DNA of 64,000 bases from Nanobdellota archaeon (GCA_018830945.1 JAHJRD010000093.1:14495-78494); one strand, 5' to 3'; counted from the stretch's first letter, positions 26,566-64,000 are shown. Translations and numbers: made by a program. Notes: generated from the sequence alone by a model not told the origin.

Positions 26566-28323
26566 CTAATCCTTAAGCAATTTCTCAGCAATAGCCGCAA
26601 ACGCAGGCCTTGTTATGAAAACGCCTATTGTAATGCCTAATATTGTTGTAACTGCAAAGCCCCTTACCAATCCTGCGCCTGCATTCCACAACGGCACCAT
26701 TGCAGCAACATTTGTAGCGTAAGCTGCAAATATTATGAAGAAAGCCCGTTTCATCCTCAGCTTCCAGTTTGAGTACATCTCTTTCTTGCCCTTCATGACT
26801 TCATCAATAATAACTATCTGGTCATCCACTCCAGTGCCTACAGCAGCTATGATGCCTGCAATTGCAGCCATGTCAAGGTTCCACTGTATCAACGCTGCAA
26901 ATCCCAATAATATGATAATCTCGCTTGCGCTTGTAATCATCATAGGCACAAGAATCTTCAATGACCTATACCTTACCAAGATAACAGCAGCAACGCCAAG
27001 CAAGGCAACAAGCACAACACTAAATGAATTTCTTACGAATTGTTTCCCAAGCACAGGGGATATTGTGTCAAGCTTCATTATCTCCAAATCAAAAGGCAAA
27101 GAGCCTGTAATCAATACTGTCTGCAGCTTGTTCATGTTATTAACAGCAGCTTCAATCGCGGCATTCCTGTTCGCGCCTGTTCCAGGCCCTGATATTGCAA
27201 TTGCAGTTGTCTCGCTTCCCTTTAAGTCAGTGCCAATCTGCAGGCTGTCAACCATCTTGTCATCAAGATAAAAGTCAATATGCTCGCTAAGTATTTCCTT
27301 GCCTTCCTCTGATGCAATCACATCAAGCTTATTTGTTATCTCAGCGTGCCTTTTTGCAGCCTCAGGAGTGATATGTATTACAAACTCAAACCTGCAGTAC
27401 TCTCCGCCTGATATTGTGCTGCAGCTTCTTATGCCTGAGCAGCTGCCGTCATCCCTGCATACAAATGTAATATCCCTCTCTCCTCCGATAAACACAGTCT
27501 CGTTTCCAATCCTTGCCTCAAACCTTCCCTGCTTTGCAATCAGGTCCTTTACTTCTTCCTTTGAAACGCCTGCAATCTCAATAAGTATGAATGTCTCGCC
27601 CATCCAGTCAGCAGCAGACCTTATCCTCATGTCACTAAGCCCGTACACATTCAGCCTGTTGCTCAACACGCTTATCAAATCAGAAATATCCTTGTCAGAC
27701 ACAGTGCCGTTCTCTGCTATTGGCTTAAGCAAAACCCTTGTTCCGCCTTCCAAATCAAGCCCTTTCTTAAGATTGCTTTTTGCAGCAACCCCCACTGTAA
27801 TCTTTGGCGCGCCCCTTGCTAAAAAAGCCGCCTGCGCCTTGTCTGTTGTGATTTTTATTATTTTCTTTGGGAGTATCCTGTTAAGCTCATCATCAAGCCC
27901 TGTCTTGTTTGAAACATTCAGATTATTCACAGAAAGCACAATATCATCATTCTGCAGCATTGAAACCATTTCAGATGAAATTACAGTAAGATTCTCATCA
28001 ACTGCAAACCCAAAGCTGTCAGTGATATTATATTCAAGCAAGATAGTTTCATTGCGCCTGCTTACTTCTGCTGAAAAAACCTGCTGCTCATTTTCAAACT
28101 GCAGCATGGCATTCTTGAAATCCATTACAGATGTTATAGGCTGCTCATTCACGCTTTGCACAATCTGCCCCACTGCAATTCCTGCAAGCGCAGCATCAGA
28201 GCCCGGCTCAACAGTTTTTACCTGCACGCCCACTGCATAAGGTGAAGGCTTTATTGCCATTACTGCAAATAAAAGAAAAGCTATTAATATCCACACTCTG
28301 ATGGGCATCTTCCATTTTCCCAC
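26566..28323 (-). CDS. secD: protein-export membrane protein SecD (with N-terminal PDZ-like extension)
   Basis: C-terminal 6-TM SecD/SecF core (GVDDQIVIIDEV..., AAYATNVAAMVPLW). Start overlaps the secF stop. Confidence 0.8.
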   Translation of the reverse strand: MGKWKMPIRVWILIAFLLFAVMAIKPSPYAVGVQVKTVEPGSDAALAGIAVGQIVQSVNEQPITSVMDFKNAMLQFENEQQVFSAEVSRRNETILLEYNITDSFGFAVDENLTVISSEMVSMLQNDDIVLSVNNLNVSNKTGLDDELNRILPKKIIKITTDKAQAAFLARGAPKITVGVAAKSNLKKGLDLEGGTRVLLKPIAENGTVSDKDISDLISVLSNRLNVYGLSDMRIRSAADWMGETFILIEIAGVSKEEVKDLIAKQGRFEARIGNETVFIGGERDITFVCRDDGSCSGIRSCSTISGGEYCRFEFVIHITPEAAKRHAEITNKLDVIASEEGKEILSEHIDFYLDDKMVDSLQIGTDLKGSETTAIAISGPGTGANRNAAIEAAVNNMNKLQTVLITGSLPFDLEIMKLDTISPVLGKQFVRNSFSVVLVALLGVAAVILVRYRSLKILVPMMITSASEIIILLGFAALIQWNLDMAAIAGIIAAVGTGVDDQIVIIDEVMKGKKEMYSNWKLRMKRAFFIIFAAYATNVAAMVPLWNAGAGLVRGFAVTTILGITIGVFITRPAFAAIAEKLLKD

Positions 28324-33621: not shown

Positions 33622-33906
33622 ATGTTAAAGATAAAGCAGATAACAGACGTTTTCGACATGCAAGTCTTCACAGACACCGGGGACTATTTCGGCGATGTGG
33701 AAGAGGCGATACTCCAGGCAAACAAGATTTACGGCTGGAGAATAAGGGCTACAAGGAACTCTTTCCTTACAAAGCTGCTCGGCGGGGCAAAGGGCGTTGT
33801 CGTGCCCCACAACCTTGTCAAGGCAATCGGCGATGTAATGGTGGTTTCAAAATCAGCTGTACCCTCATATGAAGAGGAAGAAACAGCGCAGGGTTCTGAG
33901 TATTAA
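33622..33906 (+). CDS. PRC-barrel domain protein
   Basis: About 90 aa with a PRC-barrel-like pattern (VFTDTGDYFGDVEEAIL...GWRI). SD GGAGG upstream. Confidence 0.5.
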   Translation: MLKIKQITDVFDMQVFTDTGDYFGDVEEAILQANKIYGWRIRATRNSFLTKLLGGAKGVVVPHNLVKAIGDVMVVSKSAVPSYEEEETAQGSEY

Positions 33907-33989
33907 GCATTTTTCTATTTTTATTTTCTTCTCGAAAAGTTTATATATTGAAGTGTTCTCTTCATTAGTAGTCTTAACAAGGTAGAACA

Positions 33990-34541
33990 ATGGCAGACAC
34001 AGCATTTGGAGTTGTAATTGAATTTCTTGAGAAACTTGGATTTTTTGATGTAATCCTTCCGTTCCTGCTTGTATTCACAATTGTATTCGGCATACTTGAA
34101 AAAACAAGGATATTCGGCGTTGAAAAGATTGGGGACAAGGATTACCCAAAGAAAAGCATAAACTCAATGGTTGCATTTGCAATAGCCTTTTTCACAGTGG
34201 CTGCAAAGCAGGTGGTAACATCACTGCAAGTCTCTTTGCCTAATGTAGCATTAGTGCTTATCATAGTTGTCTGCTTTTTAATGCTGGCAGGCTCATTCAT
34301 GGGAGACAAGGAGTTCAGCCTTGAGGGAAGGAAAGGATGGGTTGCATTCCTCACAATTGTGATGTTCATAGCAGTCATCTTGATTTTCCTTAATTCATTC
34401 GGCTGGCTTGAGCCGATTACAGGCTATATAATGCAGCATACAGATACAGTCCTTATTCCGTTTGTATTAATCGCAGTAATTGTGGGGGCAATGTTCTATG
34501 TTATAGGAAGAGGCCCGAAGGAGAAGAAGGAGGAGAAGTAA
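33990..34541 (+). CDS. 4-TM membrane protein, tandem paralog 1 of 3
   Basis: Shares the ILPFLLVFTIVFGILEK block with the next two genes. Confidence 0.45.
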   Translation: MADTAFGVVIEFLEKLGFFDVILPFLLVFTIVFGILEKTRIFGVEKIGDKDYPKKSINSMVAFAIAFFTVAAKQVVTSLQVSLPNVALVLIIVVCFLMLAGSFMGDKEFSLEGRKGWVAFLTIVMFIAVILIFLNSFGWLEPITGYIMQHTDTVLIPFVLIAVIVGAMFYVIGRGPKEKKEEK

Positions 34542-35138
34542 ATGGTATTTGAAAATGTTGATTTCACTGACATGATAACTACATTGGAGGACATGGGGTT
34601 TTACCAGGTAATACTTCCTTTCATGCTTGTCTTCACAATAATGTTTGCAATTCTTCAAAAGGTAAAGCTGTTTGGCGCAGAAACTAAAAATATTAATGTG
34701 GTTGTTGCTGTAATCATAGCATTCTTTTTCGTCAGGGTTACGTCAATTGTTGCAATCATCAACCAGTTTCTGCCTAAAGTTTCAATGATAGTGCTTGTAT
34801 TATTGATGTTCATGCTGGTATTGGGCATATTCGGCTCAGGCGAGTCAACAGGATGGAGTGGATGGCCTTTCTTTGTAGGCATGGTTGGAGCTGTGTTAGG
34901 AATTGTATGGGCTCTTGTCTCATCATTCCCAGGAATGGGCGGCTCTGGCGGAAGCCTTCTTCCAAGCTGGCTGGTTATCAGCTCGCAGGACAAGGCAATA
35001 CTTTTGGCAGTCGGCATTTTCGTGCTGCTTCTGTGGGTATTCAAGGACAAGAAAGATAACGAGCCTTCATTTATGGGAAAGTTTAAAGAAGGCACAAAAC
35101 CTGAATTCTTTGGGTTTGGCGGGGGAGGCAAGAAGTAG
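34542..35138 (+). CDS. 4-TM membrane protein, tandem paralog 2 of 3
   Basis: VILPFMLVFTIMFAILQKVKLFG, with a Gly-rich C-terminus. Confidence 0.45.
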   Translation: MVFENVDFTDMITTLEDMGFYQVILPFMLVFTIMFAILQKVKLFGAETKNINVVVAVIIAFFFVRVTSIVAIINQFLPKVSMIVLVLLMFMLVLGIFGSGESTGWSGWPFFVGMVGAVLGIVWALVSSFPGMGGSGGSLLPSWLVISSQDKAILLAVGIFVLLLWVFKDKKDNEPSFMGKFKEGTKPEFFGFGGGGKK

Positions 35139-35193
35139 AAATGGTCTGCAAGCGAAGTGAGTGGACCCTCGAACGAAGGGGGACTGAGTAAGA

Positions 35194-35739
35194 ATGGCTT
35201 CAATCATGGATATTGGGCTTTTGGATTATTTTGTGCCTGTGTTCATATTCATCTTCATATTTGCAATACTTTTTGCCCTGCTTGAGAAAGTCAAGGTATT
35301 TGGGGAGAACAAGGGGCTTAATGCACTGATTTCATTTGCAATAGCCTTTCTTTTTGTATTGACTCCTGACTTGCTGGGCGTTGTCAAGATAATGACTCCC
35401 TGGTTTACAATACTGTTTGTGTTTGTCATAATGATTGTTCTATTATTCATGTTTGTCGGCGTTAAAGAAGGTGATATCACAGAGGCATTTACTGAAAAAG
35501 GCATGGTATGGATTATTGTAATCGTATGCCTGATAATCATGATTTATGCCCTGACACAGGTTTACGGCGCGCAGATACAGAACATAACTGTTGACGGGAA
35601 TACGACTGCTGATGCTTCTTCTCCGACAATGACATCGCAGGTTGGAAAGATTCTGTTCCATCCAAGGGTTTTGGGCATGTTGCTACTGCTTCTGATTGCA
35701 GCCCAGGCAGTCAGGTTTCTTGCAGGGCATGCGAAATAG
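35194..35739 (+). CDS. 4-TM membrane protein, tandem paralog 3 of 3
   Basis: FIFIFAILFALLEKVKVFGENKG. Preceded by a family-2 spacer element. Confidence 0.45.
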   Translation: MASIMDIGLLDYFVPVFIFIFIFAILFALLEKVKVFGENKGLNALISFAIAFLFVLTPDLLGVVKIMTPWFTILFVFVIMIVLLFMFVGVKEGDITEAFTEKGMVWIIVIVCLIIMIYALTQVYGAQIQNITVDGNTTADASSPTMTSQVGKILFHPRVLGMLLLLLIAAQAVRFLAGHAK

Positions 35740-35825
35740 GCAGACCTCCGGCGCACGTTAATTAATTTTATTCTTTCAAAATATTAAAAACAATAGAATT
35801 CACAGCGAAGCTCGGCTTATTTCAT
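35738..35825. repeat. intergenic repeat family 2, copy R2
   Basis: AGGCAGACCTCCGGCGCACGTTAATTAATTTTATT...CACAGCGAAGCTCGGC, lying between convergent genes. Confidence 0.45.
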
Positions 35826-38108
35826 CGCCTGCTTTCTAACTTCTTTCTTCAGCCAGTCTTCCCACTCAAACAGAATCCTTTTTGTATCAATATGCCCTTC
35901 ATCCTCCAAAACACTTTCAGAAATCCTGTGGAACATGTCATTTGCCTGTATTACAAATGCTGCCTCAAGCATCCTCGGATTTTTTGATCTTGCAGCATAC
36001 TCAACAACCAGCTTTTTGGTGTCAGCCCTGAGCATTATGTTGTCCCAGATGCCGTCCCAGTTTCCTGTCCACTCCTTTACATTCGCGCCAACTGCTTTCA
36101 AAATCTCTGACTCGCCGTTAATCAATTCAGGAGTCGGCTCAAGCTGGTCTGTCTGCGAATTATATCTCATTAAGTCAACAAAACCGCCTTCTGTCAATGG
36201 ATCATTCTCCCACTCTTTCCTTACTTCAGTAATCTGCGTAACCCTTCTCCATGTATGCAAGCCGTCAGGGCTTTTCAATGGGTTTGCCACAATTATCACG
36301 TCAGTTGCCTTGAATGATGTCTTTGGAACGCCCAAGTCATTCACAACCCTGTCGTATACGCCGTAAGGGGAATCGCCGTGTATTGTTCCTGCAACAGTAT
36401 TTGCCATTGCGCCTATTCTCATTGCCTCATACAATGCAAGCGCTTCCTTGCTTCTTACTTCTCCAATAATCAATGCGCTGTTCCCCAATCTTAATGATGT
36501 CCTTATGCCTTCTGTGGCTGACATCTCAGTGCCGCCTTCCATCAATGCAGACCTTACTTTCAAGGGCTGGATGTCATAGTTAAGTTTTCTTAGAGCATTA
36601 GTGGGTAATTCTAACGTGTCCTCTACCGTTATAATGCGGGAATTTCTCATTATGTCAATCATGCATGCGCCCAATAATGATGTCTTACCGCTTGACCTTG
36701 TTCCTGCAACAAGCATTGTCCTTGTGCCGTCAATCAGGAAGCTTATCAATCCCGCTGCCAATGGATTAATCATCCTGTTCTTAACAAACAATGGAAGTGT
36801 CCACGGCTCATCCCTGTGCCTTCTGAAAGAGAACGCAAGCCCGAATGGGTTTAACGGCCTTGAGACTATTGAAACCCTTGATGTTGAATCAGGGAGGTGC
36901 AGTTCAGTGTCAAGTATCGGGTTTGCCTCATCCAGCGGCCTTCCGCTTAATAATCTGAACTTTGTTGCCCAGCTGTCAGTGTCAGTTCTTGCAGGTATTA
37001 AGTTTGATGTGCAGTTGCCGTAGTTTGCATGCAAGACAAATATTGGCACTTCTCCGTTTGGCGAGTTAATCTGCGCATCCTGCACTTTGGTATCCTTAAG
37101 CACAAGCTCCATGAACCCAAACCCTATTGTGTGCCTTATGAGGATTTCAGTCAGAAGCTTTATGTCTTTCATATTGATTTCAATGCCCTGCTCCTCCGCA
37201 AGCTCCCTTAAAAGATCCTTTCCAATGTTTGAGAATGTGTTTCTTAATTTATGCGGGTCAAGAAAATGCTCTTCCTTTGGCTGGTGCTCAGCCAGCACTG
37301 TCTTTGCTAAATCAACAAGCGTATACTTGTCCTCGCTTATCTTGAACTCAGGAGGAGTCATGTGGTACATGAATTTAATGTCATCTGTCACCCTGAATAT
37401 TGTCACTTCAGTGTCCTTGTCAACTGTGTAAACCTCCATCTCTTCGCCTTCAAGAGGCGGGCTTGCCATCACTCTTGTGAACATGAAGTCAGGCGCAATC
37501 ACAGGCCTGAAGAATAACCTGTAAACACCCCTGTCGCCAAGAGTGTATCCTGCAAGGTATTCTTTTGCAGCCTTTATCAGCTTAAGCTCTGCAAGCATGT
37601 TAAAGATTGCAGTTAAAAGCGAGATGAATATCCTTCTTGAATCAGCCATTCTCGGGTCTGCTGTTGATTCCAGCTTTGCCTCTTCAGCCCTTAACATTCT
37701 TTTTAGCTCAACATATGCTCCCAAAGGGTCTGAGCGCAATAAGTTAAATACAATTGAATGCACAATAGCATATCTCTCTGCCAAAATCCCCTGCGCCTCG
37801 TAAGAAGCGCCCAAAGAGTCAGGGCTTAATACCTTCTTTGACTTGATTAAATAGCTGTAAAGATTTGCAACCTCAACAAGCATCTGCGTCTGGTCATAGG
37901 GGTACTCGTAAAACCTTCTTTGTATGAAAATGATTCTTGCAACAGAAGGGTTCTCAGCAAGCTTGTCAATGGCATCCATCATCACAATGGCTTCTCCCTC
38001 CACTGAAGGCGAGTAAGGGGCCTGCTCATAGTTTACTCTTATTACTTCTTCATTGCCCTCTTTTATAATTTCATATCCCCCTGGCGGGACTTTGTGTGAT
38101 TCTGCCAT
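35817..38108 (-). CDS. FlaI/VirB11/GspE-family secretion/pilus-assembly ATPase with long N-terminal extension
   Basis: Walker A GTRSSGKTS, RIITVEDTLEL, and the His-box region of type II/IV secretion ATPases. About 350 aa of extra N-terminal sequence. Confidence 0.75.
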   Translation of the reverse strand: MAESHKVPPGGYEIIKEGNEEVIRVNYEQAPYSPSVEGEAIVMMDAIDKLAENPSVARIIFIQRRFYEYPYDQTQMLVEVANLYSYLIKSKKVLSPDSLGASYEAQGILAERYAIVHSIVFNLLRSDPLGAYVELKRMLRAEEAKLESTADPRMADSRRIFISLLTAIFNMLAELKLIKAAKEYLAGYTLGDRGVYRLFFRPVIAPDFMFTRVMASPPLEGEEMEVYTVDKDTEVTIFRVTDDIKFMYHMTPPEFKISEDKYTLVDLAKTVLAEHQPKEEHFLDPHKLRNTFSNIGKDLLRELAEEQGIEINMKDIKLLTEILIRHTIGFGFMELVLKDTKVQDAQINSPNGEVPIFVLHANYGNCTSNLIPARTDTDSWATKFRLLSGRPLDEANPILDTELHLPDSTSRVSIVSRPLNPFGLAFSFRRHRDEPWTLPLFVKNRMINPLAAGLISFLIDGTRTMLVAGTRSSGKTSLLGACMIDIMRNSRIITVEDTLELPTNALRKLNYDIQPLKVRSALMEGGTEMSATEGIRTSLRLGNSALIIGEVRSKEALALYEAMRIGAMANTVAGTIHGDSPYGVYDRVVNDLGVPKTSFKATDVIIVANPLKSPDGLHTWRRVTQITEVRKEWENDPLTEGGFVDLMRYNSQTDQLEPTPELINGESEILKAVGANVKEWTGNWDGIWDNIMLRADTKKLVVEYAARSKNPRMLEAAFVIQANDMFHRISESVLEDEGHIDTKRILFEWEDWLKKEVRKQAMK

Positions 38109-38231
38109 ACACCCTCTTTTGTTAATCATAGAAAAGGGATTAAGGTATATAAAGATTGTTAGTGGAAAGTTGCTTATTGCTTATTAGTTGGAAAGCAAAG
38201 AAAGGCAGGCCTCCGGCATTATTATTTTGTT

Positions 38232-39248
38232 TTATTTAGGTTTATATGATATTCCTTTTTTCGTTTCTTCAACCACTTTTTTCAGGTCTTCCTTGGAAGG
38301 CAGATTAAGCTGGTATTTTGAAGCAAAAATCCTGCTGCTCATACCGCCAAGCGCGTATTTTACAAATGTATTGTCCTTTTCAGTGCAAAGCACAATGCCT
38401 ATCGGATCATTTTCCCCTTTCAGTGTTTCATTCTCCCTGAAATAGTTAACGTAAAAGTTCATCTGCCCTGCATCAGCATGCGTAAATTTCCCGCTTTTGA
38501 CATCAATCAGGACAAGGCAATTCAAAAACCTGTTGTAAAAGACAAGGTCAACATGATAATGCTCATTATTTATTGAGATTCTTTTCTGCCTTGCAACAAA
38601 TGCATATCCTTTCCCAAGCTCCAATAAAAACTCCTGCAAATGGTCAATCAATGCCTGCTCTATCTGGCTTTCTGTGTATTGGCTTTCTTGCTTGAGATTA
38701 AGGAATTCAAGCACATAAGGGTCTTTTATTTGCTCATCGGGACTTGTTTGGCTGACTTTTGTTTTTGCAAGCAAGGGCTTTTTATTTTTGCTTAAAGCAA
38801 GCCGTTCATATAGCAATGAATGAATCTGCCTTTCGAGTTCCCTGGAATTCCATCCTTGTTTTTCTGCTTCGTTTAGGTAAAATCCTATTGCTTCTTTATT
38901 TTTAATGTAGAGAACGCTGCGATAATGCGTCCATGACAATTTCCTCCGCACTGCGGAGGAATTCCGGAACAGGCAATAAAAGCGCCTCATTCTTTCAAGG
39001 TTTTCCACGCCAAATCCCCTCCCATATTTCAAAGTTAAATCTACTGATAGCTTTTCCAGCAACCTGCTTCCATAGTCAGCCTTTATCTTTCCTTTCTGCT
39101 CAAACTCTATGATTCTTCTCCCTATTTGCCAGTAAGTGCGGGTTATGGCTGTGTTAACAGCAGATGCAGCCTGCCTTCTTCCTTGTTCAAGCAGTTTTCC
39201 TATGTCTGATATGAGCCTGTTATATCCTGCTTTTTGCATTATTTTCAT
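38232..39248 (-). CDS. DUF1016/YhcG-family PD-(D/E)xK nuclease
   Basis: C-terminal HVDLVFYNRFLNCLVLIDVK(SGKF) PD-ExK core, and an N-terminal DUF1016-like helical region. Confidence 0.6.
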   Translation of the reverse strand: MKIMQKAGYNRLISDIGKLLEQGRRQAASAVNTAITRTYWQIGRRIIEFEQKGKIKADYGSRLLEKLSVDLTLKYGRGFGVENLERMRRFYCLFRNSSAVRRKLSWTHYRSVLYIKNKEAIGFYLNEAEKQGWNSRELERQIHSLLYERLALSKNKKPLLAKTKVSQTSPDEQIKDPYVLEFLNLKQESQYTESQIEQALIDHLQEFLLELGKGYAFVARQKRISINNEHYHVDLVFYNRFLNCLVLIDVKSGKFTHADAGQMNFYVNYFRENETLKGENDPIGIVLCTEKDNTFVKYALGGMSSRIFASKYQLNLPSKEDLKKVVEETKKGISYKPK

Positions 39249-39274
39249 TGCTGAAACTGGCTATCAGCTGCTAT

Positions 39275-39400
39275 TCATAAAGCTTTCTGTGAAAAAACGT
39301 GCCTTTTTTCCTAAAAGTTGTAAAAGTGAATGTGTTTGGCGGAAAATCAATAGGAAAAGTGATGAAAAGCAATGAAATTTTCCGCCTTGCCGAAATAGGT
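39275..39400. promoter_or_regulatory. upstream element family 1, copy B
   Basis: GCTTTCTGTGAAAAAAC plus GGCGGAAAAT...ATTTTCCGCC inverted repeat. Lies 5' of the YhcG gene. Confidence 0.3.
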
Positions 39401-39496
39401 TTTTGGCTTTCCGTCGTCAAAGCTGGCATATATACATTAAATGCCACCAACAAAACAGTGAATAGATTTATATCATATTACTTCCTTATTTAGAAT

Positions 39497-40093
39497 ATGA
39501 TTAAGGCAATACTTTTTGATGCAGGCGGAGTAATAATAAAATCAGGGAACCAAATAAATATATTTGCCAAAATTTTCAGGGCAAAAAACAAGCATAAGCT
39601 ATGGGAGAAGATTAACCATTACGTCGGCCCGCTATGCGCCGGGAAAATGTCTGAGAAAGAATACTGGAAAATTATAGCCAAATCAGAAGGAATTGATCCT
39701 AAAAACATACCTGATAATCTTTGGGCCAAAAACTATGGAAAAACAACCAAGATAGACCATAAGATGATGGCATTGATAAAAAGCCTAAGAAAGCAATACA
39801 AAACCATCCTCATCTCCAACACAATCAGGCCCCATGTAATTATCAATAAAAAGAGAGGGCTGTTTGATAATTTTGATGATGTCATAAACTCAAATGAAGT
39901 GCATCTTTCAAAGGATACAAAATCAATTTTTCAGCTTGCCCTGAAAAGAAACCATCTTAAAGCCGAAGAATGCATTTTTATTGATGATATCCAAAAATTT
40001 GTGGATATCGCAAAGTCTGCCGGAATACCTGGAATTTGTTTTAGGAATGTAAGTCAATTAAAAAAAGAGCTTTCCCGTTTGGGAATGTTATAA
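39497..40093 (+). CDS. HAD-superfamily hydrolase
   Basis: Motif I ILFDAGGVI, with a downstream S/T and K, D..D motifs in HAD order. Confidence 0.6.
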   Translation: MIKAILFDAGGVIIKSGNQINIFAKIFRAKNKHKLWEKINHYVGPLCAGKMSEKEYWKIIAKSEGIDPKNIPDNLWAKNYGKTTKIDHKMMALIKSLRKQYKTILISNTIRPHVIINKKRGLFDNFDDVINSNEVHLSKDTKSIFQLALKRNHLKAEECIFIDDIQKFVDIAKSAGIPGICFRNVSQLKKELSRLGML

Positions 40094-40233
40094 ACCTTAA
40101 TGCAGCTTGCTAAAATGGCATTAAATAATGCCGGAGGCCGCTCCTTTCCCTATACCATTAACCAACAACTCACTACAATAAACACCAACCATTAACCATT
40201 AGATATATAAAGATATTTGCCATAAGATAACAT

Positions 40234-40755
40234 ATGCCAGAGGAACAAGAACAGCAGGGGCAGGACATTGTTGTTGAGCTTGTCAACAGGGTGAGGATTC
40301 TTGAGAGCAAGTACAGCCTGATGAGCGAGAGGCTTCTTATAGTAAACCAGAACATGATTGAGCATCATAAAAAGCTGATGAAGGATTTCAGGGCAGGCGA
40401 GATGGAGATAAAAGACATCAAGAATGACCTTGAGAAGGTGAAGAATATCCTAAAGCATTTGTCAGAGGAAGCTGCTAATTTCGCAAGAAAAGACGAGATA
40501 AAGCTATTGGAAAAGTATATTAAGATGTGGAACCCTATTAATTTTATTACTGAAACTGATGTTAAAAACCTGCTTCAGAGGGAGCTGCGCAGGATTGAAG
40601 AGGGGAAACCCGAGCCTGTTGAAGTTAAAAAAGAGGCAGCAGTTCCTAAGCAGTTAAAAAAGGAGAAGAGCAAGAATGGTTTCCGAGCTAAAGGCGAAGG
40701 TGCTCGAAACTATGTTTCGGCACACCGGGATGAGAATCCCGATTGGAACCCTTGA
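40234..40755 (+). CDS. coiled-coil protein, paralog 1
   Basis: Heptad-rich. The N-terminal MPEEQEQQ resembles the start of the next gene. The 3' end runs into a family-2 spacer element. Confidence 0.4.
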   Translation: MPEEQEQQGQDIVVELVNRVRILESKYSLMSERLLIVNQNMIEHHKKLMKDFRAGEMEIKDIKNDLEKVKNILKHLSEEAANFARKDEIKLLEKYIKMWNPINFITETDVKNLLQRELRRIEEGKPEPVEVKKEAAVPKQLKKEKSKNGFRAKGEGARNYVSAHRDENPDWNP

Positions 40756-40770
40756 ACGAAACGGAGTGAA

Positions 40771-41262
40771 GTGAAAATGCCTGAAGAAGAAACACCGCAG
40801 GAGGATATGCAAGTTTCTGCCCTTAGCAGGGCTGAAGAAGAGATACCAGTGCCGTCTCCTGTTTCAGCGCCACAAATGTCAATGACGCCTTCTGCTGAGA
40901 TGCCTTCAATGCCAACTCCTCCTTCAATGGGATATGATGAGATGCAGTCAATTGTTGAGGAAATCATTGAGGAGAAATGGAAAGAGATGCTTACAAGCAT
41001 GGGTGACTTGACAACATGGAAAGTGCAGGTTGAGGATGACATGGAAGCTTCAAAGCAGGAGATTCTGAGATTGCAGTCAAGGTTTGACACAATGCAGGCA
41101 GCTATTGTCGGCAAGGTTGGGGAATATGAAGGCTCAATGAGGGACTTGTCAACTGAGATGAAGGCTTTGGAGCAGGTAATGCAGAAGATACTGGAGCCGC
41201 TGACTTCTAATATTAAGGAATTGGGAAGGATAACAGAAGATTTAAGAGGCAGGAAGAAGTAA
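40771..41262 (+). CDS. coiled-coil protein, paralog 2
   Basis: MKMPEEETPQ..., a Pro/Ser/Met-rich linker, then coiled coil. Confidence 0.4.
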   Translation: MKMPEEETPQEDMQVSALSRAEEEIPVPSPVSAPQMSMTPSAEMPSMPTPPSMGYDEMQSIVEEIIEEKWKEMLTSMGDLTTWKVQVEDDMEASKQEILRLQSRFDTMQAAIVGKVGEYEGSMRDLSTEMKALEQVMQKILEPLTSNIKELGRITEDLRGRKK

Positions 41263-41345
41263 AAGCCGGCCTCTGTCACTCCGCAAGCTGCGTTCCGAGG
41301 TCCACTTCATTGCATTCGCAGACCTCCGGCATAATTCTATTGAGA
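41263..41345. repeat. intergenic repeat family 2, copy R5 (inverse orientation)
   Basis: The reverse complement (GGTCTGCGAATGCAATGAAGTGGACCTCGGAACGCAG) matches the 35140..35193 spacer. Shares the GCAGACCTCCGGC core. Confidence 0.45.
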
Positions 41346-41351
41346 TACGGA

Positions 41352-41831
41352 CTATCCTAACACCCTTATCGTTTCCCTCTGAACCTTGAGTATCAGTTCT
41401 TTTACCCTCTTCAGCTGCTGCAAATCAATGCTTGTTTCCACGCCGTATGTGGAAATCTCCCTGGTTTCCCTTATAGTCAGGCTGGTAAGGCTGTTCTCAA
41501 CATCAAGAGTGTCAAATTGGGCAATCAAGTCCTTATCCAAATCCAGCTTATGTTCTTTTATCAAAGCAAGCATGGCGGTGATTGTGCAGGACTGATTTCT
41601 GGATTCATAGCCGTATTTGGCAAGTATTGCCAGAAAGCAGTGATAAATGGCATAAAACCCCACATTTAAAGCCCAGTCATATATCTTCAGCCTTTCAAGG
41701 GTTAATACAACACCATAATTATATTCAGACTTTTTAAGGTGCTTTTGCGCTAAATCCATGTCAGCTTTTGCCTTTACCAGCCTTTTTGCATCTTTCAGGT
41801 GCCATTTCAAATGATTGTCTATTTGCGGCAT
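41352..41831 (-). CDS. HEPN domain protein
   Basis: YAIYHCFLAILAKYGYESRNQSCT block shared with 19360..19881. Confidence 0.6.
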   Translation of the reverse strand: MPQIDNHLKWHLKDAKRLVKAKADMDLAQKHLKKSEYNYGVVLTLERLKIYDWALNVGFYAIYHCFLAILAKYGYESRNQSCTITAMLALIKEHKLDLDKDLIAQFDTLDVENSLTSLTIRETREISTYGVETSIDLQQLKRVKELILKVQRETIRVLG

Positions 41832-42421
41832 TTTTTTATTACCTCCACATATTTCTCAGGGTTATGAAATACAAGATTATCTGACATAATGCTATAAAAT
41901 GCCTTATCTTCCTTGTTTTTTAAAATATCTTTTTCAGTTATATCAACATACCTTATTGGCTGTTCAACCAGCCCTGATTTTCTTATTTCATCTTTTATGC
42001 TTTTAACCCCTGCGGATTTCCCAGCAGGGTACATAAGTAAAATGTCTATGTCATTAAAATGCCTGCTTTTTATGGACGAGCCGAATACCAACCCAAGCTC
42101 TATGCTCTCTTTAAATTTTTTCAAGCTGTGCATCAGGACAGACAGCCATTTGGGAAACTCTTCCTGGCTCAGCATGTATTCCATAAACTTTATTGCCAGC
42201 TTGCTATTGTAAGCATAAGAAAAGAAAGCGGAATTTCCTATTTCCTCTTTTACGAGCAGATTTTTGCCTGCCAAAAGGTTGCAGAGCTTATTGGCGTGGG
42301 CATGGTTGATGCCTAATATTCTTGCTAATTGCCGCGGGTTATGCCTCTCTTTGTAGCGCTTAAAAAGAAATTTGGCTATCTGGATTTCGGTCTTTGTGAA
42401 TTGTATGTTATTAACATCCAT
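41819..42421 (-). CDS. wHTH-fused nucleotidyltransferase (MNT)
   Basis: GSSIKSRHFNDIDIL motif. Start moved to MDVNNIQF because the upstream part of the listed ORF is the R6 repeat. Confidence 0.65.
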   Translation of the reverse strand: MDVNNIQFTKTEIQIAKFLFKRYKERHNPRQLARILGINHAHANKLCNLLAGKNLLVKEEIGNSAFFSYAYNSKLAIKFMEYMLSQEEFPKWLSVLMHSLKKFKESIELGLVFGSSIKSRHFNDIDILLMYPAGKSAGVKSIKDEIRKSGLVEQPIRYVDITEKDILKNKEDKAFYSIMSDNLVFHNPEKYVEVIKKCRK

Positions 42422-42467
42422 GTGTATTCTGATAGCATACAGCATATATAAGCTTTGCGTTTTGGAA

Positions 42468-42552
42468 AAGCCAGCCTCTGTCACTCCGCAAGCTGCGTTC
42501 CGAGCCCCACTTCTCTCCGCTCGCAGGACTCCGGCGCACTTCACTCAATTCC
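42468..42552. repeat. intergenic repeat family 2, copy R6
   Basis: AAGCCAGCCTCTGTCACTCCGCAAGCTGCGTTCCGAG...GCAGGACTCCGGCGCAC is ~80% identical to R5. Confidence 0.45.
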
Positions 42553-43496: not shown

Positions 43497-45728
43497 ATGG
43501 TTATAGGCTTCGGCCCTACAAAGGGCGCAAAAAACATCATGGGCAAGTATGGCCTTAAGATGGGAGAAAGGTTCAAGCCAAGCATGATGGACCTTCCAGG
43601 CCCTGAAAAGGTTTTCTCAAAGGATTACAGCATATTCAGGGAAGAAACATTAAGGGCAAGCACCGGATTCTATGAAGAAGCCTGCAGGTTTGCTGAAAAA
43701 ATAATCAAAGTAGACCCTAAAGAGGAAGACAGGAAAAAGCTGGAGGTTGCAATAGAAAGAGCCCACATCAGCGTTACGCCGACAGGAGCATATTCATTAG
43801 GCGTTATTGCAATGATTTTATTCATCGCATTAGGAGGGCTGATACTTCTTATCTCATATTTCCTTTCAGAGGCAGGGCTTATAGCAGGCACGCAGTTCAT
43901 GCTTCCCATAATCCTTATTCTTGGAGGAATAATTGTGTTAAAGCCAATCAGCAAATACCCTGTCCATCTTGCAATGAAATGGAGGCTGCAGGCATCAAAC
44001 CAGATGGTTTTGTGCATTCTCTACATTGTGATGTACATGAGGCATACATCAAACCTTGAGCATGCAATAAAGTTCGCAGGCGAACACATTGGCAACCCAT
44101 TGGCTCTTGACTTAAGAAAAATCATGTGGGATGTTGAAACAAGAAAATACTCAACAATAAAGGAAGCAATAGACATCTATCTTGAGCAGTGGAAGGATTA
44201 CAACCTTGAGTTTGTCGAATCATTCCACCTTATTGAATCATCATTGTTTGAAAGCAGCGAGCAAAGAAGGGTTGAGCTTTTGGAAAAAGCTTTGGAAGTA
44301 ATGCTTGAAGGCACTTACAACAACATGATGCACTATGCGCAGGAAACAAAAAGCCCAATCACAACGCTTCACATGCTTGGAGTCATACTTCCTGTATTGG
44401 GCTTAATCATACTTCCATTAATGGGAGCTTTTCTCGGGGTAAAATGGTACCAGCTTGCCATAATCTATAACATAGCTTTGCCAATAGGAGTGTATTTCAT
44501 GGGATACAGGATAATGGCAAAAAGGCCTGTTGGATATGCGCAGTCAAACATCTATGAGACAAGCGCAAAATATAGGAGCATGCGAATGTTCTCTTTTGGA
44601 GGAAAAGATATTGAGCCAAAGAATGCAGCTTTAATGATTGGCACGGCAATAGTTCTTATCGGGCTTCTTCCTCTTCTGCTGCACCTTATAGTCCCGGGCC
44701 AGGACATACCGATTGGAAGCGCTGCCCAGCCGCTTGGCATGCTGCTTGACTACAAGCTTGCTGACTTTGAAGTTGGAGGTAAAATAGTGGAGAAATCCAT
44801 AGGCCCCTTTGGAATCGGCGCTTCATTGTTAAGCTTGTTCATAACATTGGGAATCGCAATAGGGATTGGATTTTATTTCAAGACAAGGTCAACCAAGCTC
44901 ATGAAAGTAAGGGATGAAACAAAAAAGCTTGAGGCAGAGTTTCAGGGCGCATTGTTCCAGCTTGGCAACAGGCTTGGTTCTGGAATACCAACTGAAATGG
45001 CTTTCAGCTCTGTTGCTGAAACACTGCATGGCACGCCAACAGGAAACTTCTTCACATTGGTTGACAGCAACATAAGAAGAGGGGGAATGAGCTTAAGGGA
45101 TGCAATATTTGATGAAAAGCACGGCGCAATAAACTCATACCCAAGCTCATTGATTGACAGCTCAATGAGGGTTCTTGTTGAGACATCAGAGAAAGGGCCG
45201 TCTGTTGTGTCAAAAGCAATGATTAACATCTCAACATACCTTGACAGGATAAACAAGGTAAATGAAAGGTTAAAGGATTTGCTTTCTGAAACAGTCAGCT
45301 CAATGAAAGCGCAGGTTTCATTTTTATCGCCTGTTATTTCAGGCATTGTTGTCGGCATTGGCACGATGATAACAACAATCATAGGCGGGCTGACAACTGC
45401 GTTTGCCCTTGCAGGAGACGAAGGAGGCGGGGAAGCAATGGGGATTGCAGGCGGGCCTGCTTCAATGCTTGAATTTTTTGACATAAAAACACTTATGCCA
45501 CCTTATTTTTTCCAGATAGTTGTCGGGATATACCTTATAGAGGTTGTTTACATACTTACTGTGCTGGGAAACGGCATTGAAAACGGGGTTGACACGCTTA
45601 ATGAGGAAGACAAGCTTGGCAAAAACTTATATAAAAGCGCTGTCTTTTACATAATAGTCGCGGCAATAACAATGATAGTGTTTAACATGCTTGCTACAAT
45701 GATTTCATCAAGAGTGGCAGGCGTTTAA
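43497..45728 (+). CDS. FlaJ/TadC/GspF-like polytopic platform protein (two T2SS-F-like repeats)
   Basis: Twofold architecture of a TM pair followed by a cytoplasmic helical domain (…HAIKFAGEHIGNPLALDLRKIMWDVE… and …LGNRLGSGIPTEMAFSSVAETLHGTPTGNFFTLVDSNIRRG…). SD AAGAGGGA upstream. Confidence 0.55.
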   Translation: MVIGFGPTKGAKNIMGKYGLKMGERFKPSMMDLPGPEKVFSKDYSIFREETLRASTGFYEEACRFAEKIIKVDPKEEDRKKLEVAIERAHISVTPTGAYSLGVIAMILFIALGGLILLISYFLSEAGLIAGTQFMLPIILILGGIIVLKPISKYPVHLAMKWRLQASNQMVLCILYIVMYMRHTSNLEHAIKFAGEHIGNPLALDLRKIMWDVETRKYSTIKEAIDIYLEQWKDYNLEFVESFHLIESSLFESSEQRRVELLEKALEVMLEGTYNNMMHYAQETKSPITTLHMLGVILPVLGLIILPLMGAFLGVKWYQLAIIYNIALPIGVYFMGYRIMAKRPVGYAQSNIYETSAKYRSMRMFSFGGKDIEPKNAALMIGTAIVLIGLLPLLLHLIVPGQDIPIGSAAQPLGMLLDYKLADFEVGGKIVEKSIGPFGIGASLLSLFITLGIAIGIGFYFKTRSTKLMKVRDETKKLEAEFQGALFQLGNRLGSGIPTEMAFSSVAETLHGTPTGNFFTLVDSNIRRGGMSLRDAIFDEKHGAINSYPSSLIDSSMRVLVETSEKGPSVVSKAMINISTYLDRINKVNERLKDLLSETVSSMKAQVSFLSPVISGIVVGIGTMITTIIGGLTTAFALAGDEGGGEAMGIAGGPASMLEFFDIKTLMPPYFFQIVVGIYLIEVVYILTVLGNGIENGVDTLNEEDKLGKNLYKSAVFYIIVAAITMIVFNMLATMISSRVAGV

Positions 45729-45744: not shown

Positions 45745-45843
45745 ATGGCAATGAAAAGTCTTGTGCTGGTTATCCTGGCATTAATGCTTGGAGTAATTAT
45801 TATAATCGCAATAATGGGAATGAAAAAAGGTATAGGAATATGA
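45745..45843 (+). CDS. 32-aa single-TM peptide (not in ORF list)
   Basis: MAMKSLVLVILALMLGVIIIIAIMGMKKGIGI. AAGAGGAAA SD, and ATGA overlap with the next gene. Confidence 0.3.
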   Translation: MAMKSLVLVILALMLGVIIIIAIMGMKKGIGI

Positions 45844-46568
45844 TTTCAAAAAAAGGCTCAATTGACATACAGGTTGTTGTCGGAGTGATACTGCTGCTTG
45901 CAGCGCTTATAGTAATAGGCATTATCATAGCAAGCGCTGTGTTTGGTGTATCATCCACAGACATGAAAAAATTCTCCTGCTGGGCTTCAAACGGAATGAA
46001 GTCAAGCAATTTTGTGTTCAAGAGCCAGCTGCCTTCAACCTGTGAAATCAATAATATTGAAGAGCCTGCTGATGTTGAAGCCATTGCAAAGATGATGACA
46101 GAAACCTGGTGGATGTACGGCAAGGGAACATGGGACTTTGGAAAAGAGGACCATGAAATTGCCGTGTTTTATTTTGAAGCTGCCAAAGACATAAAGTTTG
46201 ATGAAGTTCTTAACTTTCTTACAGCGACAAAAGACGGCAAGCGCGTCAGCGATATAGCTGACTCTGATTATAATTATCTTGCAAAAGGCTCAAATGATCC
46301 AACAATATGCACTGGCAAAACACTTGGGGACCAAGGCATGACTCCGACAATGAAAAAAGGAGAAAGGTATTTCATAATGTTCTGGGATGATGCAAGCATT
46401 TTGGGCCAGGGCAGGGAATATGGGGACAAGGTGGCTATTGCAGGAAAGCCGCAGCTTGGGCAGGAAGGAGCGTATTACTGCTTTTCAAAGCCAAGAGGGG
46501 AATGGCTCAGCATCTCAAATGACAACAGGCGGATATGGATGCCTGTTATAGGAGATGTGTCATTATGA
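45840..46568 (+). CDS. pilin-like protein with putative class-III (prepilin-type) signal peptide
   Basis: MISKKG|SIDIQVVVGVILLLAALIVIGIII: a KG-type cleavage context followed by a hydrophobic helix. Confidence 0.45.
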   Translation: MISKKGSIDIQVVVGVILLLAALIVIGIIIASAVFGVSSTDMKKFSCWASNGMKSSNFVFKSQLPSTCEINNIEEPADVEAIAKMMTETWWMYGKGTWDFGKEDHEIAVFYFEAAKDIKFDEVLNFLTATKDGKRVSDIADSDYNYLAKGSNDPTICTGKTLGDQGMTPTMKKGERYFIMFWDDASILGQGREYGDKVAIAGKPQLGQEGAYYCFSKPRGEWLSISNDNRRIWMPVIGDVSL

Positions 46569-46810
46569 TGAAAAACTTAAACAAAGGTATAATGACAGGT
46601 GTTAAGTTTCTCAAATATGCCTGCTGTAAAGATGAAAAGACTTATGCCCGCAGGCATATGAGCCGGAAAGGAAAGCTTGCTCTTGAGTATCTTGCAGTAA
46701 TAGCTCTTGCGCTGATTGTGCTTATTGTGGTGCTCATATTCAGCAGCAAGATAAGGGAAAAGGCGTTTGACGCAGGAAGAAGTTTCCTGGGGATAATAGG
46801 GAGAAGATAA
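46565..46810 (+). CDS. small protein with class-III signal-peptide-like motif
   Basis: Internal RKGKLALEYLAVIALALIVLIVVLI resembles PF04021-like KGxxxLEYLL. The preferred start is 46565 (AGGAG upstream), with 46658 as an alternative. Confidence 0.4.
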   Translation: MMKNLNKGIMTGVKFLKYACCKDEKTYARRHMSRKGKLALEYLAVIALALIVLIVVLIFSSKIREKAFDAGRSFLGIIGRR

Positions 46811-46961: not shown

Positions 46962-48734
46962 ATGGAAGTACCAGAGTGGCTGACAAATGCAATCATCGTG
47001 CTTGTTGTGATATTCATCATAGGCGCCATTATATACCTCATTGCTCCTGAAACCTATAAGGACATATTCAGCATTGCAGAGGAAACATTTGAGATAGGAG
47101 AAGAGCAAAAAAAAGCAGAGGCTGCGCAGGAAATAATAGGCACAACAGTAGAGGCATTTAACCTGTGCATTGAAAATGCTGTTGAGGGATGCAGCTGCGC
47201 GCTTGATGAAAGCAGCCTGCCAAACGGCTATATAATCTGGCTCAAAAATACTAAAGATGATGAAGGCAAAAAAATACTCAAGATGCAGGCATTTACCCCT
47301 CAAGGCGCTGCAATAAGCAATGCAAGAGACTTCTCAAACATTAATGTGAGGCTTGCGGTTGCAGGCACTGCAAAAACAAAAAATGATATTGAAAAAGAAG
47401 GGGTAATCTGCGCAGAAAGCGACATGCGCATATGGAACAATAACGGCAAAATCAGGATTGGCGCAGAAACAGGCGGCGCAGGTGAAGTGCAGTGGTTTGA
47501 CTTTTACCATGAAACACATTCTAACCAGATACTGAAGCAGGGAAGCAATGTATGCTTCCTTACAAATACTGTTGAATCAGGCATAGTGGGAATGGCAGGA
47601 ACAATAGAAGACACAGAGAGATTTAACTTTATTGCAGAGGTTGACTTACCAAGCAATCCTACTGAAGCAGGAAGAATCGCTGCAGAAGCATTGAGAAGCC
47701 TGCCTGCCTGCACAGGCACTGACAGGTCAAACTATCTGGTTTTATGGCCTGTTTTGCCGCAAAACATAATCTCAGTCGACTCATGCAAGGACAGGCCGCG
47801 CGAGCTGGCTTCAAGCATGGGCACAAACATCCCGCTTACTGCAACTGAAGACAGCGATGTTATAGTGCCTGTCAATAAAGGGGCTGTAACTGATTATTGC
47901 CTGGAAAACTGCGGTGATGAAGGCAAGAGCGTGACAATGTATGAAGTATATGATACAGGAATAAACTGGCCCACAAGCAGGCGCATAAAGATTGCAGGAT
48001 TAAAGGAGATTGATGAAAAATACCAGGTTAAGGGCGTTATAGAATCAACAAAAATAACAAAAGGCGCTAATGTATCTGCAGGCGATATTCTCGGGAAGGC
48101 AACAGCAAAGATCAGCTATATCCAGGACTTCCCAATGCAGGTAAGCAGGCCTGCAAATCCCGGGGCATTATTGCCGTTTGGAATTATTGAGGAAGAAGGC
48201 ATATTAGATACCTTGTCAAGAAATGCATTGGAAGAAAGGTTCTGCTCACTTCCAAGATTATCAGCTGAAAAATACAAAGGAGAAGGATGCGAAAGAATCA
48301 CATCAATCAACGGATGCAGCAGGGCCTTAACAAGAGGCTCGCTGCAGGAGATAGCAGACAAGATATCCCAGCTTAAGAACGGAGAAAGCGATAAAACAGT
48401 TCTTTCATTTATCCAGGGCGGAAGGCATTATGGATATCTTTTTGTGTTCGCAAGAGGGGCTAATGCTTATACAGACGAATGGATTGGAATAGATGTACTT
48501 GCAGAAGACACTCCAAGGCCTGCAATATGCAACATGGACAAGCACTGCATCTGCCTTTGTATGAATGAAAATTCCTGCAGCAGCGGGCTGTGCCAAGAAC
48601 TGCCTGAATACGGATTTAACCCGACAACAGTTAATACTGCAATGATTGGAAGCGATAACGCAAGAGAAAAGACAATACATTTCCAGAGGCTTGGGGAAAG
48701 GCTGGGCATATGCACAAGCACGCCCTGCATATAA
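46962..48734 (+). CDS. N-terminally anchored, Cys-rich extracytoplasmic protein
   Basis: N-terminal hydrophobic helix (EWLTNAIIVLVVIFIIGAIIYLIA) followed by a 560-aa Cys-rich domain. Confidence 0.45.
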   Translation: MEVPEWLTNAIIVLVVIFIIGAIIYLIAPETYKDIFSIAEETFEIGEEQKKAEAAQEIIGTTVEAFNLCIENAVEGCSCALDESSLPNGYIIWLKNTKDDEGKKILKMQAFTPQGAAISNARDFSNINVRLAVAGTAKTKNDIEKEGVICAESDMRIWNNNGKIRIGAETGGAGEVQWFDFYHETHSNQILKQGSNVCFLTNTVESGIVGMAGTIEDTERFNFIAEVDLPSNPTEAGRIAAEALRSLPACTGTDRSNYLVLWPVLPQNIISVDSCKDRPRELASSMGTNIPLTATEDSDVIVPVNKGAVTDYCLENCGDEGKSVTMYEVYDTGINWPTSRRIKIAGLKEIDEKYQVKGVIESTKITKGANVSAGDILGKATAKISYIQDFPMQVSRPANPGALLPFGIIEEEGILDTLSRNALEERFCSLPRLSAEKYKGEGCERITSINGCSRALTRGSLQEIADKISQLKNGESDKTVLSFIQGGRHYGYLFVFARGANAYTDEWIGIDVLAEDTPRPAICNMDKHCICLCMNENSCSSGLCQELPEYGFNPTTVNTAMIGSDNAREKTIHFQRLGERLGICTSTPCI

Positions 48735-48735
48735 A

Positions 48736-63208: not shown

Positions 63209-64000
63209 ATTATGCAGGAGAAGAGGATAATAATTCCCAAAAAAAGCCTCTGTTCCTTTAACAGAAATGTCATAAACTTTAGCAGAACTTTTTTTGGTTA
63301 TGGATTTTACTTGTAAAATACCCACATCAGAATCTAATAATAACTCATAATTTGCAATAATCTCCTTTGAATGAGCATCAAATTCATTAGAATTAAATCT
63401 CTTGAACCATTTTATTACATTCCATATTCTTTCTGCATTGGCTCTTTTCTTGCGTAATGTCACCTGTTCAAGGCGATGATAATTAAAAAATTTAGGTTTA
63501 ATTTGCAAATAGACTCTTTTAAGCCCGTCAACTGGAAAGGTCCTATCTCTTGGGAATGGAGAAAATTTATTCCTACCCCTGAAAAATTCCTGTAAATTAA
63601 GCTCAGATTTCGGTATATTGAGTATATAAACAAAACTTCCTTTGAATATATTACCCTGCGGCAGTTTATGGGGCTTATTTTGTTCACAAGAAAGGGAGCA
63701 AGAAATCCCGTTTAATTTACAAAGCCAGAGCAGTTCAGTAATGAGCTTATGCGCAACAGATTTAATAGCGATATGGTATTTGCCCAGCTTATAACCATCG
63801 CCCCTTATATAGCCCTTTAAAAGTTCCATAAAAAGGGGTTTAGGAAGATTCCAAGCAAATTCAGGTATATGCTTATTCTTTTTTTTACCGCACAAATTCT
63901 CAAAAAAAGAAGCCCATTCTTTGGAATGGATTAATATTTGTGTAGAACCAGCATTAGGGTGCCTTATTGAGATATGCCTTTTCGTTACGCTTAAAAGAAG
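63209..64000 (-). mobile_element. intein (LAGLIDADG homing-endonuclease type), C-terminal part; continues past window end
   Basis: Block F/G VYDISV...FGNYYPLLLHN|S, LAGLIDADG-like LLKGYIRGDGY. The reading frame stays open through 64000. Confidence 0.6.

Follow-up and report, generated by a model that had tools for sequence, protein, structure and literature searches.

Type IV filaments (TFF) of the Epd/Tad kind, which include archaeal System 1, the Methanococcus Epd pilus, and the bacterial Tad/Flp pili, are the closest described counterparts of a gene cluster found in a Nanobdellota archaeon (GCA_018830945.1 JAHJRD010000093.1:14495-78494; 64,000 nucleotides (nt), hereafter the window, with positions counted from its first letter). 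The cluster includes three tandem genes for small membrane proteins (P1, P2, and P3, together the triplet), two genes for soluble coiled-coil proteins (ccA and ccB), and a gene for a long secretion ATPase. In common with Epd/Tad systems, this Woesearchaeal locus encodes an ATPase of the FlaI/TadA/CpaF family, often with a putative polytopic partner directly downstream. Candidate counterparts of the Epd/Tad pilins are a very small protein that lacks a head and has a G/xxxxEY-type motif, and the products of larger pilin-like genes. The major Epd pilin of archaeal System 1 is described as having no globular domain (Sivabalasarma & Albers 2026). In contrast to Epd and Tad, the Woesearchaeal locus has one large platform gene instead of two, an ATPase longer by about 240 amino acids (aa), and three paralogs of probably five helices each together with two coiled-coil proteins, which are undescribed for either system. 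The triplet is real and conserved, and it appears to be an accessory module, so far undescribed, within a system of known kind.

A second described relative is a haloarchaeal gene pair of the clade 4 type in Haloterrigena turkmenica (pHTUR04). Its ATPase core is 40% identical to that of the window (hhalign E 8e-50), and its genes have pilin-like neighbors, as at the Woesearchaeal locus. However, the N-termini of the two ATPases cannot be aligned over the 327 N-terminal profile columns of the Woesearchaeal protein, and no triplet homolog was found beside the pHTUR04 genes or in the plasmid collection. A survey of archaeal systems in which Woesearchaeota were not covered found that ATPase and tadC genes normally form an operon, and that ATPases of subclade 4F carry extra variable N-terminal domains and have an intracellular coiled-coil partner, arCOG07564; the clade also occurs in nanoarchaea (Makarova 2016, PMC4858521). 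Great length alone would thus not make the ATPase new. The N-terminal domains of archaeal TFF ATPases are subsystem-specific and probably touch accessory proteins that are likewise subsystem-specific (Sivabalasarma & Albers 2026, bioRxiv 10.64898/2026.04.22.720090).

Lineage-specific sets of membrane and coiled-coil proteins encoded beside ATPase and platform genes are also known from other machines (e.g., ArlX or ArlCDE with ArlF/G, PilM/N/O, and GspL/M), where their presumed task is to keep the ATPase at the membrane. Their likeness to the Woesearchaeal locus is one of gene context, with no similarity of sequence or fold. Unlike P1-P3, which are polytopic and have next to no soluble portion, those scaffolds are bitopic and carry soluble domains of considerable size. 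The coiled-coil proteins of the Woesearchaeal locus are separate soluble polypeptides.

The P1-P2-P3 triplet

The open reading frame (ORF) listing of the window contains three consecutive genes, all on the plus strand, at the positions given in an earlier first-pass annotation of this DNA. P1 (33990..34541, +; 183 aa) is the best conserved of the three paralogs, has five predicted membrane helices, and carries the hallmark motif G-x2-D-x2-LPFLLVFT-x2-F-x-ILEKTKIFG...K-x2-N. The start codon of P2 (34542..35138, +; 198 aa) immediately follows the P1 stop codon, and the protein ends in a lysine-rich C-terminal tail. P3 (35194..35739, +; 181 aa) is the most divergent paralog; its fourth loop, predicted to face outward, is longer and acidic and contains NxT sequons. 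The block (V)ILPF(L/M)LVFTI..., which had led the first-pass annotation to regard the genes as paralogs, is found in the proteins, and alignment of the three by BLASTP upholds their kinship: P1 and P2 are 39% identical over 122 aa (E 3e-18), and P3 matches each of the other two at E 1e-5. Residues kept across all three paralog classes are limited to L23, K38, G43, N58, and A62, and the hallmark of the family is therefore helix 1 with the cytoplasmic loop that follows it. Median scores between species are 148 bits for P1, 96 for P3, and 81 for P2.

About 45 nt upstream of the P1 start, the sequence reads as an element resembling a B recognition element and TATA box (BRE/TATA-like; gaaaagTTTATATAtt, 33934..33949, +). 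It is preceded by a T-rich stretch 3' of the stop codon of a PRC-barrel gene and is likely the triplet's own promoter.

The membrane topology is most likely one of five helices with the N-terminus outside and the C-terminus inside, rather than the four helices initially proposed. In an AlphaFold2 model of P1 built with 68 homologs (predicted local distance difference test, pLDDT, 86), five long hydrophobic helices span residues 18-39, 55-71, 73-103, 115-137, and 151-172, in agreement with hydropathy, and are accompanied by an N-terminal amphipathic helix and a short beta-hairpin (44-53). The orientation fits the distribution of lysine and arginine in 70 orthologs of each paralog: both are enriched in the C-terminal tail and in loops 1 and 3, whereas loops 2 and 4 and the N-terminus have an acidic or neutral character.

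The family to which the triplet belongs is large. A collection clustered at 90% identity holds 658 homologs of P1 at E ≤1e-3. Among the 120 of these that were listed, none has a family annotation, those with names are "hypothetical" proteins from metagenome-assembled genomes (MAGs) of Woesearchaeota, Nanoarchaeota, and unclassified archaea, and just one has any Pfam domain (P0075; 315 aa, PF01869), which is likely a gene fusion. A profile search of 1.84 billion representatives returned 2507 clusters at E ≤1e-3 and 1301 at E ≤1e-10; the 150 best of the 2507 are mostly single-domain proteins of about 170-200 aa, with some 20 shorter members (probably fragments) and about ten longer ones. In a species-level genome collection, at least 533 pattern matches encode a relative. 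Eighty of these loci were fetched, all of them from one lineage, with some mislabelled "Methanosarcinales".

Exactly three tandem members are present in 69 of the 80 species-level loci, and most of the others seem to be cut by contig ends. For each of P1, P2, and P3, the best match in other genomes belongs to the same positional class in 70 of 70 cases. Because of this positional orthology, the triplication must predate the radiation of the sampled species; that it is older than the divergence of all sampled Woesearchaeota is strongly supported by the sequence comparisons, as is the description of an old triplication given before. In about 40-50% of the 69 loci with a triplet, the gaps between the genes measure -4 to +3 nt, a spacing that hints at translational coupling and at a complex of fixed stoichiometry.

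No relative of the triplet was found in Pfam, NCBIfam, PDB sequences, or PDB folds. The literature searched likewise contains no description of the triplet, and the earlier statement that such proteins have no described role stands. A minority of P2 and P3 members show a weak local likeness, over the first three to four helices, to YibE/F-like (PF07907) and DUF2070 (PF09843) proteins, which are larger than P1-P3, polytopic, and of no known function. Window P3 scores 19.9 bits against PF07907, below the gathering threshold of 27.2. YibE_F matches at E ≤0.01 occur in seven of 84 P2/P3 members (best E 2.9e-6; the six matches outside the window are graded by E-value only), and DUF2070 matches at E 0.01 in nine of 84. 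Since neither family has a known function itself, even true kinship would give P1-P3 no function.

Conserved gene order and the long ATPase

In other genomes, the usual order is P1, P2, and P3 on the plus strand, ccB and ccA on the minus strand, and an ATPase gene of about 760 codons on the plus strand, often with genes for a polytopic protein of about 730 aa and pilin-like proteins after the ATPase. In 54 loci the sequence extends 7 kb or more beyond the P1 start; the ATPase lies 2-6.4 kb downstream in 47 of them, and ccA or ccB is present in 51. A reverse search from three ATPase homologs, one of them in a closed 736-kb genome, found the triplet and both coiled-coil genes directly upstream in all three. 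The link between triplet and ATPase implied by the first-pass annotation is supported by this synteny, and the neighborhood is kept in 47 of 54 species-level loci.

The layout of the window itself is unusual. The ccB-ccA-ATPase segment is inverted in the window (35817-42544) and in its closest species-level relative (L007), and in the window it contains inserted genes for a YhcG/DUF1016 PD-(D/E)XK nuclease (38232-39248, -), a HAD hydrolase (39497-40093, +), and a HEPN-like protein (a sub-threshold match) with a 241-aa partner (41352-42544, -). The inversion and the insertions explain why triplet and ATPase converge here; of the first-pass picture of three genes converging on a 763-aa ATPase, the adjacency is real and the convergence is a derived inversion shared with L007. 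The triplet-cc-ATPase block withstands such inversion as well as cargo insertion (L088) and the loss of adjacency to the platform gene. In L088:10309-15825 and L041:15275-20192, a heavy-metal cassette (a MarR-like regulator, an HMA protein, and a P-type ATPase) lies between the secretion ATPase and the presumed platform gene, and the block remains intact in both.

The two coiled-coil genes lie within the inverted segment. The product of ccA (40234..40755, +), a soluble coiled-coil protein of 173 aa, is the ortholog of a 119-164-aa gene product encoded divergently upstream of the ATPase elsewhere, and it has the conserved motif KY-x2-LWNP-x-NFVT. The 163-aa product of ccB (40771..41262, +), also a soluble coiled-coil protein, is the ortholog of a 196-254-aa gene product encoded next to P3 in other genomes. 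Profile matches of both proteins are confined to assorted coiled-coil families, all below threshold. A resemblance to archaellar FlaC/D/E was considered and rejected, as neither FlaC_arch nor Arch_fla_DE is among the matches listed (for ccA, the best 25 of 58 families). Many ccB orthologs (e.g., L030:11773-12414 and L038:11730-12335) begin with a UBA-like helical motif (e.g., LPVDQVMQLRQQGYSNNQIVDQLQRQGY) followed by a linker rich in proline and glutamine; this UBA-like N-terminal part is missing from the copies in the window and L007.

The ATPase (35817..38108, -) is a 763-aa protein of the T2SSE/FlaI-TadA type, as judged by Pfam T2SSE, its motifs, and its PDB relatives. Its ORF extends over 35817-38129 (-), and the length of 763 aa is counted from the ATG at 38108. 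The same length appears in public gene calls and in an NCBI entry that matches the protein at 100% identity and derives from a "Nanoarchaeota archaeon" MAG; the window accordingly belongs to a DPANN (Woesearchaeota/Nanoarchaeia) contig. A TATA-like box read from the sequence (TTTATATA; 38146..38153, -) lies about 38 nt upstream of this ATG, a position that favors the start at 38108 over the ATG at 38129. Residues 457-608 pass the Pfam T2SSE model (PF00437) with 55.7 bits against a cutoff of 24.9, and the relatives in PDB are afGspE (E 4e-28), CpaF (E 3.8e-22), FlaI, and VirB11. The four motifs of the secretion ATPase family, by their established names Walker A (GTRSSGKTS), Asp box (EDTLEL), Walker B (IIGEVR), and His box (TIHGD), are nearly invariant among 60 homologs. 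The protein scores 118.7 bits against the FlaI model NF058587 of NCBIfam, where the equivalog cutoff is 550, and 117.1 bits against the TadA-family model TIGR03819, where the cutoff is 373; both scores, its best in NCBIfam, fall far short. Scans of the neighboring window proteins revealed no archaellins, FlaH, FlaF, or FlaG.

The N-terminal extension of the ATPase is shorter than the 350 aa first ascribed to it. In three alignments, query residue 226 corresponds to position 33 of the FlaI model, residue 302 to position 104 of afGspE, and residue 322 to position 119 of FlaI; the extra N-terminal piece therefore measures about 190-205 aa, and the larger figure wrongly took in an ordinary FlaI-like N-domain. 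The C-terminus adds about 35 residues more, so that the whole protein exceeds FlaI by about 240 aa, in agreement with the earlier estimate of about 250. The extension, approximately residues 1-200, is predicted to be well folded (pLDDT 86), with an alpha/beta domain (12-89) and a helical bundle (106-184), and the FlaI-like N-domain begins at about residue 203. Many invariant residues lie within positions 1-260, and identity across the ATPase family is 58-84%.

Inteins, which are typical of highly conserved proteins, occur in the family: many ATPase orthologs are about 1262-1282 aa long (e.g., P0125, P0126, P0128, and P0131) and contain intein/homing-endonuclease domains (PF14528, PF14890), and a 1783-aa ATPase ORF (L033:12805-18156) possibly holds two. 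The window ATPase is intein-free.

Probable filament genes and other neighbors

Downstream of the inverted segment, a 743-aa polytopic protein (43497..45728, +) is the probable platform of the system (PilC/TadC/FlaJ-like). Its match to Pfam T2SSF is below threshold (E 7e-4; 19.9 bits against 25.2), and 20 of 21 orthologs have no T2SSF match. Comparison by hhalign aligns it with a "secretion system protein" of Haloterrigena pHTUR04 over 491 columns (probability 99.7%, E 4e-27), and the gene of that protein adjoins one for a T2SSE ATPase. A hidden Markov model of the platform family was applied to the 41 loci with enough sequence, with flanks of +/-10 kb. In 15 of these the platform gene comes immediately after the ATPase gene, and in 21 it lies anywhere within the flanks; where it occurs, the two genes often touch or overlap (gaps of -10 to +64 nt). 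A comparison of 47/54 with 15/41 indicates that the ATPase is linked more constantly to the triplet and coiled-coil genes than to the platform gene.

The platform gene is followed by one for a pilin-like protein of 242 aa (45840..46568, +) with a class-III-type N-terminus, MISKKG|SIDIQVVVGVILLLAALIV..., an assignment made at the level of motifs: KKG|S precedes a hydrophobic helix, and the match to Pilin_N is weak (E 0.05). Orthologs of this gene come after the platform gene in other loci. A candidate Flp/Epd-like mini-pilin of 50 aa is encoded further downstream (46658..46810, +; MSRKG|KLALEYLAVIALALIVLIVVLIF...). It reads MSRKG|KLALEYLAV..., which matches the G/xxxxEY processing motif of Flp-type pilins and also suits the head-less Epd pilin of archaeal System 1, and its orthologs are 49-57 aa long, read KG|xLAWEY, and follow the pilin-like gene (L002:16163-16312, L005:16101-16262, and L087:13201-13374). 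No family model, including the Flp models, matches the mini-pilin candidates. Because a platform homolog, a pilin-like gene, and candidate G/xxxxEY mini-pilins occur together, the best description of the locus is that of a type IV filament system of divergent, Tad/Epd-like type.

Large proteins, either secreted or anchored in the membrane, with an M23 peptidase domain of the peptidoglycan type and HExxH zinc-protease motifs are encoded downstream of the pilus genes (48646-51099 and 51812-54079, +). Proteins of the same class occur from about position 16316 onward in L002, with an SLT lytic transglycosylase domain, and in L087:13371-15692. The presence of bacterial cell-wall hydrolases in an archaeal pilus locus may hint at interaction with bacterial partners or prey.

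Immediately upstream of P1 lies a gene for a 94-aa PRC-barrel protein (33622-33906, +), about 72% identical to the L002 and L005 orthologs and 61-90% identical across the loci that retain it. PRC-barrel proteins act in archaeal division. The gene adjoins P1 in 30 of 70 loci, and the region upstream of P1 is of two different kinds. A functional tie between the triplet and the upstream PRC-barrel, TraB, and M50 genes was set aside because of this 30/70 adjacency and because a terminator-like T-run and the TATA-like element separate them from P1.

Two other window genes attract attention. A single 568-aa ORF (62189-63895, -) has both small- and large-subunit domains of DNA primase with a weak intein-splicing match, and may be a fused PriS-PriL. 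A SecD-like protein (26566-28323, -) has an N-terminal PDZ domain (PDZ_6 E 1.3e-7) before its SecD/SecF C-terminal domain. The window contains no tRNA or Rfam elements.

Possible roles of the triplet

The reading favored here, with a probability of roughly 0.5, takes P1-P3 to be a hetero-oligomeric module that lies almost entirely within the membrane and belongs to a Woesearchaeota-specific, Tad/Epd-like filament machine, in which they would serve as scaffold or stator. P1, P2, and P3, transcribed as one tightly packed unit, would most likely assemble into this module, with the first transmembrane helix and the short cytoplasmic loop as its conserved surface and the lysine-rich C-terminus inside. 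The module may anchor or organize the soluble ccA and ccB proteins and, through them or directly, would hold the hexameric ATPase by its extra 200-aa N-terminal domain. By analogy, its role would correspond to that of ArlX/ArlCDE in archaella, PilMNO in bacterial type IVa pili, and GspL/M in type II secretion.

Several observations weigh against such a role. The promoter-like element of the triplet, together with the opposite-strand genes in between, excludes co-transcription of triplet and ATPase, and the two lie apart in seven of 54 loci. The loci sampled come from one lineage (at order or class level), so that the synteny could partly be inherited gene order. So little of P1-P3 extends beyond the membrane that they would be unusual among the scaffolds of known filament machines. 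Lastly, no prepilin peptidase was detected among the roughly 35 window ORFs scanned.

Some of the same facts can be read as signs of an unrelated housekeeping membrane complex (e.g., a small transporter or a membrane-biogenesis factor) that stands near the pilus genes through the gene order of the lineage. The triplet has its own promoter-like element with a terminator-like T-run before it, the neighboring coiled-coil genes are oppositely oriented, and where triplet and ATPase are apart (7/54), the triplet is still intact as a triplet. The sub-threshold YibE_F and DUF2070 matches would also suit a complex of this sort. This explanation seems rather unlikely. Far more improbable, and largely refuted, is the idea that the triplet represents a divergent form of a known pilus component. 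The size of about 180 aa and the five helices do resemble small peptidases of the TadV/FlaK type, no peptidase was seen in the window, and nanoarchaea without a recognizable peptidase have been noted (Makarova 2016, PMC4858521). Nevertheless, P1-P3 were rejected as A24 prepilin peptidases (FlaK, PibD, or TadV) on grounds of motif and topology, as they have neither the two-aspartate/GxGD signature nor a Peptidase_A24 match. An invariant glycine before the first hydrophobic helix recalls unusual pilins, but P1-P3 begin with a helical leader of acidic (net negative) character, are taken up by five hydrophobic helices, and have a predicted N-out and C-in orientation; type IV pilins and archaellins were rejected accordingly. 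As fragments of a split platform, P1-P3 were rejected because they lack a T2SSF match and align with the Woesearchaeal platform profile at an hhalign probability of 0.2% (E 0.32).

Alternatively, the triplet, ccA, ccB, and the long ATPase might constitute a self-contained machine in which the triplet is the primary membrane partner of the ATPase and the platform/pilin operon is separable or separate. The six-gene block is steadier (47/54) than the adjacency of ATPase and platform (15/41, or 21/41 within the flanks), although in archaeal systems the ATPase gene normally shares an operon with tadC (Makarova 2016, PMC4858521), and the ATPase has a unique conserved N-domain of 200 aa. On the other hand, ATPase and platform genes that occur together often touch or overlap, platform genes may lie elsewhere in the genome since +/-10 kb was covered, and the ATPase core and platform are clearly homologous to a haloarchaeal pair that has pilin-like neighbors and no triplet. 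A self-contained machine is rather unlikely. Equally doubtful is its broader form, in which the six-gene block would be a distinct, order-wide machine whose ATPase is coupled through the N-domain and ccA/ccB to a heterotrimer, and not only to a PilC-type platform.

The preferred reading of the triplet as a scaffold or stator module bears on a group whose surface machines are barely known. DPANN archaea such as the Woesearchaeota, whose genomes are tiny, are thought to need contact with other cells, and the triplet-cc-ATPase block is retained in genomes down to 736 kb. If the triplet and the coiled-coil pair are true machine parts, they would represent a large uncharacterized family (about 2500 clusters at 50% identity) and a new way to build the membrane base of a type IV filament system. 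They would also be a concrete target for structural biology and cryo-electron tomography, with six proteins in a known gene order. Should the triplet instead prove to be the main partner of the ATPase, this would be the first ATPase of the PilB/FlaI type to work mainly with a non-PilC membrane partner. A true six-gene machine would add a new type of membrane partner for secretion ATPases, and it might be central to cell-cell contact or the exchange of material in these archaea, which are host-dependent and genome-reduced.

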